The notes beneath the pieces were generated by a model that was given only the letters and a program-made list of their open reading frames with translations, was not told where the DNA came from and made no database searches. A stretch of 64,000 nt of DNA. Origin: Candidatus Bathyarchaeota archaeon. GTDB taxonomy: Archaea > Thermoproteota > Bathyarchaeia > Bathyarchaeales > DTEX01. The stretch is taken from positions 67,584 through 131,583 of the forward strand of contig JAGTQB010000001.1 in assembly GCA_018396995.1 (NCBI GenBank). Direction: 5' to 3'. A program made the translations under genes and the position numbers. This document shows, piece by piece, positions 45,372-45,796 of this stretch (within the stretch, counting starts at the first letter, position 1; each line of letters opens with the position of its first letter).

Positions 45372-45570
45372 TGGTGGGGCTGGCCGGACTTGAACCGGCG
45401 ACCTACGGGTTTCTCCAAGCTCCAGACGATCTTCATCCCCAAGGGGTCAGTAAACCCGTTTCCTGGCATCTGGAGCCCTTAACGGCCTAAGCGGCTAAGC
45501 CGCATTAAGCAGTCGTCATACCTTTCTAGCAGTCACACATGAAGTGTGGCTGCTGCTAGACCACAGCCCC
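45372..45570 (-). tRNA. tRNA-Val(UAC) gene with about 122 nt of intervening sequence in three blocks; the 3' CCA is encoded
   Basis: The reverse strand has acceptor GGGGCTG/CAGCCCC, discriminator A, CCA and the T-arm GCCGG-TTCAAGT-CCGGC. Joining 45570-45556, 45525-45514, 45459-45450 and 45411-45372 gives a 77-nt cloverleaf: GGGGCTGTGGTCTAGAAAGGTATGACGACGGGTTTACAACCCGTAGGTCGCCGGTTCAAGTCCGGCCAGCCCCACCA. This closely resembles archaeal tRNA-Val. Intron borders are ambiguous by a few nt. Confidence 0.8.
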
Positions 45571-45664
45571 ACCATCAAAAATTATGAGAAATCATCCAAA
45601 TTTATATACATTATGCACCCATCTAAACGAAAAAGTTAAGAATATGAGTTTTAATTGAAGTAAA

Positions 45665-45796
45665 TGGTGGATTGCCGGCCAAAGGGCGCGGGAACCACCC
45701 AAACCCATTCCGAACTTGGAAGTTAAACCGCGCTCCGTCCCCGGTTTTAGTGGGGTCTTCGGCCCCGCGAAGCTGGGGAAGCTGGCAATCCACCAT
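45665..45796 (+). rRNA. rrf: 5S ribosomal RNA (not linked to 16S/23S)
   Basis: The terminal helix pairs TGGTGGATTGCC with GGCAATCCACCA. Internal conserved blocks are CCCATTCCGAACTTGGAAGTTAAAC and GTGGGG...CCCC...AAGCTGGG. Confidence 0.9.

Follow-up and report, generated by a model that had tools for sequence, protein, structure and literature searches.

The window, a 64-kb stretch of DNA with a G+C content of about 44%, carries on its minus strand (45570..45372) a real tRNA gene of 199 nt with three interruptions. As an earlier note on this DNA had stated, the gene has acceptor and T arms and an encoded CCA: the acceptor stem comprises 7 bp (GGGGCUG/CAGCCCC), the T arm has a 5-bp stem (GCCGG-UUCAAGU-CCGGC), and both A73 and the CCA end are present. 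The gene is flanked by the gene of a MoeA protein with 100% identity to the MoeA of a "Candidatus Bathyarchaeia archaeon" MAG. Upstream of the tRNA we found the TATA-box-like element TATATAAA, a putative archaeal promoter as judged from its sequence and position; ATATATAAA stands at a comparable upstream distance in two syntenic orthologues (L001 and L002). We consider it highly probable that the locus is a Bathyarchaeia tRNA-Trp(CCA) gene with four exons and three BHB introns, the third of which is proposed to be a C/D-type guide. The gene is organized as follows, where H, inner and outer give the base pairs of the central and flanking helices of each splice motif:

45601..45608, minus strand: TATA-box-like element TATATAAA; the mature 5' end follows 30 nt downstream; read from the sequence
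45554..45570, minus strand: exon 1, 17 nt (GGGGCUGUGGUCUAGCA), tRNA positions 1-17; identical in L001, L002 and L040
45524..45553, minus strand: intron 1, 30 nt, in the D-loop at 17/17a; relaxed BHB (HBh'), H=4, inner=3
45512..45523, minus strand: exon 2, 12 nt (AGGUAUGACGAC), positions 17a-28; from the spliced product
45479..45511, minus strand: intron 2, 33 nt, at 28/29 on the 5' side of the anticodon stem; relaxed BHB (HBh'), H=4, inner=6
45470..45478, minus strand: exon 3, 9 nt (GGGCUCCAG), positions 29-37, with the anticodon CCA at 45473-45471; from the ARAGORN Trp(cca) call and the orthologues
45411..45469, minus strand: intron 3, 59 nt, at the canonical position 37/38; hBH motif, H=4, outer=3
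45372..45410, minus strand: exon 4, 39 nt, positions 38-73 plus the encoded CCA; from the spliced product

Consistent with the claim of the earlier note that standard tools miss this gene, ARAGORN reported no tRNA anywhere in the raw 64-kb window, and the Rfam tRNA model had no match at the locus. The sole Rfam report at the gathering threshold in the window was a 5S rRNA (45671-45790, plus strand), and a permissive Rfam scan over the gene gave only chance-level matches (tmRNA, 26 bits; sR3, 9.5 bits). ARAGORN without its intron option missed even single-intron orthologues and was rerun with that option. A search of the 64-kb window for further hidden tRNAs by their T-arm signature returned the 45570..45372 gene only.

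Two different triple deletions each turn this gene into a 77-nt cloverleaf. The earlier note had removed 45526-45555, 45460-45513 and 45412-45449, thereby obtaining a tRNA-Val(UAC) that includes ACGGGUUUAC as an exon of 10 nt and is spliced at non-canonical junctions without BHB motifs, and ARAGORN does call this product tRNA-Val(tac). This product is not unique, however, as deletion of 45524-45553, 45479-45511 and 45411-45469 yields an equally good cloverleaf (GGGGCUGUGGUCUAGCAAGGUAUGACGACGGGCUCCAGACCCGUAGGUCGCCGGUUCAAGUCCGGCCAGCCCCACCA), which ARAGORN calls tRNA-Trp(cca) and which has a 7-nt anticodon loop, CUCCAGA, with U33, the anticodon CCA and a purine at position 37. When only introns 1 and 2 were deleted, ARAGORN itself reported a tRNA-Trp with a 59-nt intron in the anticodon loop. 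The corresponding junctions are 45554|45523, 45512|45478 and 45470|45410, and the mature RNA is predicted to read ...GUCUAGCA|AGGUAUGACGAC|GGGCUCCAG|ACCCGU.... Archaeal and eukaryal TrpRS recognize A73 and G1-C72 as identity elements; both are present, but they do not discriminate between the two products, since tRNA-Val also has A73.

Thus, three introns in the D-loop, the anticodon-stem region and the anticodon loop, separated by very short internal exons, are borne out, while the isotype and most of the borders given in the earlier note are not. Its D-loop block has the correct length of 30 nt and is displaced by 2 nt; its second and third blocks, of 54 and 38 nt, have to be replaced by introns of 33 nt (45511-45479) and 59 nt (45469-45411). 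The supposed 10-nt exon 3 is intronic, lying within the 37/38 intron, and the non-canonical 36/37 junction was an artefact of the exons chosen, the third intron being at the canonical position 37/38.

The splice motifs separate the two exon sets. Using the definition of a BHB as a 4-bp central helix with two 3-nt bulges on opposite strands (PMC4090602), we scanned the precursor for a 4-bp helix H plus one 3-nt bulge per strand, with the cut placed after the second bulge base, and validated this register with the canonical 37/38 case and with the anticodon-intron pair 32/-3. An exhaustive scan of this kind returns more than 100 chance motifs and is informative only in combination with the requirement for a cloverleaf product. 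For intron 1, the motif is CUAG[CA|G]...CUAG[AA|A], with the central helix CUAG:CUAG, the bulges CA|G and AA|A, and an inner helix (CAG-C-CACAC/GUGUG-A-CUG) of 3 bp followed by 5 more. For intron 2, it is GACG[AC|U]...CGUU[AA|G], with the central helix GACG:CGUU, the bulges AC|U and AA|G, a 6-bp inner helix (GCUUAA:UUAGGC) and a GCGGC/GCCGC hairpin. For intron 3, it is CUCC[AG|A]...GGAG[AA|A], with the central helix CUCC:GGAG, the bulges AG|A and AA|A, and an outer helix (GGG:CCC) of 3 bp that extends to 5 bp once intron 2 has been removed.

All three Trp junctions therefore show four of four central pairs together with a flanking helix. The strict hBHBh' form, which the earlier note could not draw at any junction, was found at none of the three Trp junctions (the outer helix of introns 1 and 2 is only 1 bp); relaxed hBH/HBh' forms occur at every one of them. 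In shuffled sequence, four central pairs plus at least two flanking pairs arise at about 0.6% of arbitrary position pairs; at such a rate, three motifs that jointly restore a cloverleaf are not a product of chance. At the Val junctions, by contrast, none of the nine equivalent registers gave a BHB, the single case with H=4 having no flanking helix. Both the odd 36/37 junction and the apparent lack of BHB motifs thus resulted from choosing the wrong exons. Likewise, the CTAG repeat, which had been taken to leave the borders of the first block ambiguous, is self-complementary and forms the central helix of this splice motif; it fixes the junction of intron 1 at a distance of 2 nt from the one given previously, so that the mature D-loop is AGCAAGGUA rather than the AGAAAGGUA of the Val set.

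For intron 1, pairing was also counted across seven sequences, the only intron for which this was done on a hand-defined BHB structure: 92% of the cells pair in this structure, as compared with 17–54% when the partner strand is slid. Covariation is modest, with two pairs changed on both sides. RNAalifold preferred a continuous 7-bp helix over the bulged register for intron 1 and returned a partly misaligned fold for intron 2, the variable loops being misaligned by MAFFT. With relaxed HBh' motifs at 17/17a and 28/29, the gene would need a broad-specificity EndA, an enzyme type described for Crenarchaeota and Thaumarchaeota (PMC4090602).

We identified more than 30 orthologues in Bathyarchaeia genomes and metagenomes, which separate the two exon sets more clearly still than the splice motifs do. 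In L001 and L002 (76% MoeA identity), the same gene lies upstream of MoeA and adjoins the 5S rRNA gene, with exons identical to those in the window and diverged introns. L003 and L004 (72% MoeA identity) have no tRNA upstream of MoeA, and the L005 and L006 copies are incomplete, their sequence stopping within the T arm. When 185,579 species genomes were scanned for a pattern taken from the 3' half of the gene, 21 further complete Bathyarchaeia orthologues were obtained. A metagenome scan used a pattern that proved too short (14 of 120 matches were tRNA-Trp genes, 11 of them complete) and included UCUGGAGC, so that these matches are not independent with respect to that element. Spliced at the motif-defined junctions, all 17 fully parsed genome-derived genes gave tRNA-Trp(cca) in ARAGORN. 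Six genome-derived genes were not parsed; two of these (L026 and L071) are tRNA-Trp genes with one intron according to ARAGORN with the intron option, while the remaining four (L067, L077, L090 and L060) and the 11 metagenome genes were assigned by eye.

The orthologues are uniform where the tRNA-Trp structure places exons. GGGCTCCAG is invariant in every orthologue, CUCCAGA never varies, and GGGCUCCAG is found without variation. GACGACGGGCTCCAGA is contiguous in L008, L016, L051, L061, L076, L081, L087, L088, L100 and others, and nine genome-derived genes (e.g., L061, L016 and L087) that lack introns 1 and 2 have an unbroken ...GGUAUGACGACGGGCUCCAGA.... The acceptor stem varies in a compensatory manner (GGGGCUG/CAGCCCC versus GGGGCCG/CGGCCCC).

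A different anticodon or different junctions were the grounds on which the earlier note would have given up its own reading, and the comparison with relatives points to both: where introns 1 and 2 are missing, the orthologues have an uninterrupted ...GACGACGGGCUCCAGA..., and those without intron 2 have CUCCAGA straight after ACGGG. In the syntenic L001 and L002 and in most other orthologues, UGC (Ala) stands in place of the supposed anticodon UAC, an A/G flip among genes with identical exons. The 10-nt exon is itself explained as a complement of the 3' strand of the anticodon stem and hence a copy of its 5' strand. What remains in favor of tRNA-Val(UAC), besides its cloverleaf, is that the true tRNA-Val(UAC) genes of related Nitrososphaerota (L019 and L117) share the GGGGCUG acceptor stem and the GUGGUCUAG D-arm, which is why the body of the molecule looked Val-like. 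Weighing these points together with the missing splice motifs, we attach practically no credence to a tRNA-Val product. We also considered alternative splicing of one precursor to both Trp and Val, and rejected it, as there is no splice motif at the Val junctions and the orthologues do not keep the Val anticodon.

With respect to intron content, the orthologous gene occurs with one, two, three or four introns, at the four recurrent sites 17/17a, 28/29, 37/38 and 43/44. Five single-intron genes (L026 type) contain the 37/38 intron only. Intron 1 is absent from 22 of the 33 complete orthologues, and intron 2 is present in L001, L002, L040, L056, L012, L068, L075, L192 and L202 and absent elsewhere. 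All four introns are found in five relatives (L012, L068, L075, L192 and L202), and for three of these (L012, L068 and L075) ARAGORN confirmed the spliced product. Archaeal tRNA genes have been described as containing "up to three" introns in the tRNAscan-SE 2.0 paper (PMC8450103); the four introns of these relatives exceed this published maximum.

The same comparison bears on whether the locus might be a decaying pseudogene, that is, a tRNA gene inactivated by repeated insertions, with the motifs as leftovers. Standard tRNA finders fail to detect the gene, and a second tRNA-Trp gene could be checked for within 64 kb of the genome only, as would suit such a scenario. Yet lineages with strongly diverged introns and flanks have the same or almost the same exons, a splice motif is kept in every intron with helices that vary while staying paired, conservation extends to the TATA-like element and to the synteny with 5S rRNA and MoeA, and the multi-intron architecture recurs in many independent MAGs. 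We therefore regard decay as very improbable and treat the locus as a tRNA-Trp gene in what follows.

We parsed the architecture of intron 3 from 21 distinct genome-derived sequences. From 5' to 3', it consists of a variable 5' stretch, ACGGGUUU(G/A), C(U/G)GA, a stem-loop, AUGA(A/C)GA, 3 nt, UCUGGAGC, a variable stretch and the 3' half of the BHB (RRAG-AA|A). In the gene described here, these elements are:

45451..45459, minus strand: antisense element 1, ACGGGUUUA (the exon 3 of the earlier note), complementary to A38-U43 of the 3' exon
45447..45450, minus strand: box D'-like CUGA; CUGA, CGGA or UUGA in all orthologues, with the terminal GA invariant
45437..45446, minus strand: short stem-loop CCCC-UU-GGGG, from box D' to box C'; its ends vary and stay complementary
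45430..45436, minus strand: box C'-like AUGAAGA (consensus RUGAUGA); every orthologue has this sequence or AUGACGA
45419..45426, minus strand: antisense element 2, UCUGGAGC, complementary to G31-A38 (GCUCCAGA); 3 nt past box C'

A K-turn is formed by tandem G·A pairs between the UGA..GA of box C' and the GA of box D', and variation is tolerated at the other positions. In the box pair of this gene (CUGA, CCCCUUGGGG, AUGAAGA), the UGA..GA and the terminal GA are precisely the bases that are invariant in all orthologues. The stem-loop at 45437..45446, whose stem ends occur as CCCC/GGGG, CCUUU/AAAGG, CUCC/GGAG or CCUC/GAGG, would provide the canonical stem of this candidate K-turn.

Both antisense elements are conserved. 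ACGGGTTTG/A stands directly 5' of C[T/G]GA in 16 of the 21 distinct genome-derived introns and CCGGGTTTG in three; the element is also found in the metagenome orthologues. Over 7–9 bp, the element is complementary to the anticodon arm on its 3' side, and the fifth base upstream of box D', a G, pairs with C39. Being the complement of A38-U43, the ACGGGUU of this element inevitably repeats the sequence of the stem's 5' strand and thus acts as a decoy. UCUGGAGC is invariant in all genome-derived orthologues. The usual 12-nt spacer after box C', combined with the fifth-base rule, would place C34 at the target position; with no conserved box D to fix the register, and with the sequence at the expected box D site being degenerate, C34 is a candidate target by its spacing. 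In archaea, the introns of tRNA-Trp genes, with a median length of 65 nt, harbor a nested box C/D sRNA whose selected sites are C34 and U39, as reviews state for Haloferax, Pyrococcus and "other Euryarchaeota" (PMC4090602, PMC11408192, PMC7994747). Typically, archaeal tRNA-Trp contains Cm34 and a modified G37 (PMC7668247). The geometry of intron 3 points at C39 and C34, the positions guided by the known euryarchaeal pre-tRNA-Trp intron.

Several features of a complete C/D guide were sought without success. No RUGAUGA-like box C was found 5' of antisense element 1, near the 5' end of the intron, and across the orthologues no conserved box D follows UCUGGAGC, the four nucleotides at the expected site being UGGA here and UGGA, UGAA, UUGA, GUGA, GUCU, GUUU or GUAA among the orthologues. 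We found no terminal C/D pair beside C'/D', so that one box pair only is convincing. Among the Rfam 15 C/D models, the best match was sR3 (9.5 bits, E=10), far under its gathering score. Furthermore, in the L026 lineage the position-39 antisense element has been replaced and the complementarity to position 39 lost. Given the single box pair, the lack of a box D and of an Rfam match, and the loss in L026, we file intron 3 as one that may work like the tRNA-Trp C/D intron and do not assign it to the canonical two-motif C/D class.

These same observations, namely one recognizable box pair without a conserved box D, no Rfam C/D match and an L026 lineage that does without the position-39 complement, would also fit a tRNA-Trp gene with three BHB introns in which intron 3 guides nothing and its hairpin and complementary stretches only stabilize the precursor fold or the splice motif. 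The distribution of invariant and variable box bases argues against this, since it is the one that a K-turn needs. In addition, the UCUGGAGC duplex competes with the splice motif instead of stabilizing it, and both conserved antisense elements have a spacing that would target 39 and 34, the sites of the known tRNA-Trp intron (PMC4090602, PMC11408192). We consider a purely structural role for intron 3 unlikely, and retain the C/D-type guide as the preferred interpretation. How such a guide might manage with a single box pair can be suggested only tentatively: possibly, it is a minimal single-K-turn guide, in which one D'-stem-loop-C' unit serves two antisense elements (for C39 and C34) while the helix of anticodon stem and BHB replaces the terminal C/D pair.

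Folding of the precursor illustrates the competition. The minimum free energy fold (-89.4 kcal/mol) contains a 12-bp cis duplex of GGGCUCCAGAUG with CGUCUGGAGCUU, pairing the anticodon region with UCUGGAGC, whereas a nested fold with all three BHBs, built by hand and then evaluated, has an energy of -61.2 kcal/mol. In the latter, the three BHB motifs are compatible with one another and do not overlap. The presence of the cis duplex in the one fold and of the BHB in the other indicates that guiding and splicing call for competing folds of intron 3. For the euryarchaeal (Pyrococcus) pre-tRNA-Trp, mutually exclusive guide and splicing folds were reportedly described by Bortolin et al. in 2003.

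From this exon–intron structure, its splice motifs, their conservation and the guide geometry, we infer the following course for expression of the gene. The 199-nt precursor would be transcribed from the TATA-like TATATAAA (45608-45601), and its ends would be trimmed by RNase P and 3' processing. EndA would cut the three BHBs, in each case after the second bulge base, and RtcB would ligate the exons of 17, 12, 9 and 39 nt, the introns probably being circularized. Through the K-turn-type pair of CUGA, stem-loop and AUGAAGA, intron 3 may recruit L7Ae, Nop5 and fibrillarin and direct 2'-O-methylation of C39, and probably of C34, before or after splicing. Such methylation could take place in cis on the precursor, or in trans after excision of the intron, as with the euryarchaeal pre-tRNA-Trp intron.

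Three-intron tRNAs and tRNA-Trp guide introns are both already known kinds. The guide introns of Haloferax volcanii and of Pyrococcus (sR50) (Clouet d'Orval 2001, Singh 2004) are summarized in PMC4090602, PMC11408192 and PMC7994747. The Bathyarchaeia intron shares with the euryarchaeal one the host tRNA-Trp with anticodon CCA, the canonical 37/38 position, a similar length (59 nt against the archaeal median of 65 nt), two antisense elements to both sides of the anticodon arm whose predicted targets are 34 and 39, and predicted guide duplexes that overlap the splice motif. It differs in having one convincing box pair (D'-stem-loop-C') with terminal C/D boxes absent or degenerate, in a position-39 target that is C rather than U, and in a host gene that contains two further non-canonical introns. 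The lineage differs as well, since the guide introns of tRNA-Trp have been described for Euryarchaeota or "few archaea" (PMC11408192, PMC3491384). [quoted passage not shown]

Multi-intron tRNA genes are known mainly from Pyrobaculum and Thermofilum (Thermoproteales; Sugahara 2007/2008; PMC3218864, PMC8450103). Those genes likewise have BHB introns, up to three per gene, at canonical and non-canonical positions with relaxed hBH/HBh' motifs, and are likewise missed by simple tRNA finders; in the separate lineage of the Bathyarchaeia, an orthologous gene has one to four introns at four recurrent sites. A limited literature search found no description of a multi-intron tRNA or a tRNA-Trp guide intron in Bathyarchaeia.

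Reading the gene as tRNA-Trp removes its oddities, as the non-BHB junction, the 36/37 intron and the 10-nt exon do not exist. It also illustrates how a putative guide intron can mislead the search for exons: an element antisense to either strand of the anticodon stem has the sequence of the opposite strand, and thereby creates a decoy anticodon arm. Since ARAGORN and Rfam are blind to the gene, tRNA-Trp may be counted as missing in such MAGs, a risk that applies to tools without models for non-canonical introns. For the Bathyarchaeia, the tRNA-Trp reading places in this lineage both multi-intron tRNAs and a proposed tRNA-Trp guide intron, and the orthologues with one to four introns constitute a clean natural series in which to study how introns are gained and lost and how wide the substrate range of EndA is. 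If the single-K-turn guide is real, it would act in cis and differ in architecture from the euryarchaeal intron with its two motifs, and its host genes would belong to a family with intron gain and loss at four fixed sites and with up to four introns per gene.

A scan of window positions 1-64000 for the T-arm/acceptor signature returned a single match, the tRNA-Trp gene, and ARAGORN run over the same interval found no tRNA. The neighbouring 5S rRNA gene is divergent from the tRNA-Trp gene and lies 100 nt from its 5' end; the order 5S / tRNA-Trp / MoeA is kept in both syntenic relatives (L001 and L002).

45671-45790, + strand: 5S rRNA gene (Rfam, 72 bits)

Two Nitrososphaerota / Caldarchaeum loci (L019, L117) carry genuine tRNA-Val(UAC) genes, the isotype first assigned to the window gene, without introns. 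These have the D-arm GUGGUCUAG in common with Bathyarchaeia tRNA-Trp, as well as its acceptor stem, GGGGCUG; the tRNA-Trp and tRNA-Val(UAC) bodies are unusually similar in the Bathyarchaeia and Nitrososphaerota lineages concerned.

Among all tRNA-Trp orthologues in the loci from our synteny, genome and metagenome scans (L001-L239), intron number varies (1, 2, 3 or 4), the intron sites are fixed, and nearly every intron has the 3' bulge AA|N. Two-intron genes are interrupted at 37/38 and 43/44; three-intron genes show two distinct site combinations. Five orthologues, 222-242 nt long, contain four BHB-type introns (17/17a, 28/29, 37/38 and 43/44):

L012, CALKGV010000090.1: four-intron tRNA-Trp gene
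L068, JAGTRG010000048.1: four-intron tRNA-Trp gene
L075, JAGTQL010000043.1: four-intron tRNA-Trp gene
L192 and L202: four-intron tRNA-Trp genes

ARAGORN identified the spliced products of three of the five (L012, L068 and L075) as tRNA-Trp(cca). The archaeal maximum according to the tRNAscan-SE 2.0 paper (PMC8450103) is three introns per tRNA gene.

Single-intron genes are of the L026 type, and their 37/38 intron was compared in L026, L067, L071, L077, L090, L225 and L239. This lineage carries AUUGAUUGC-UUGA, in which UUGA is box D' and AUUGAUUGC the element 5' of it, and complementarity of AUUGAUUGC to the anticodon stem is lost; UCUGGAGC is retained. The tRNA-Trp orthologues, with their one to four introns, constitute a natural series for the study of intron gain and loss.
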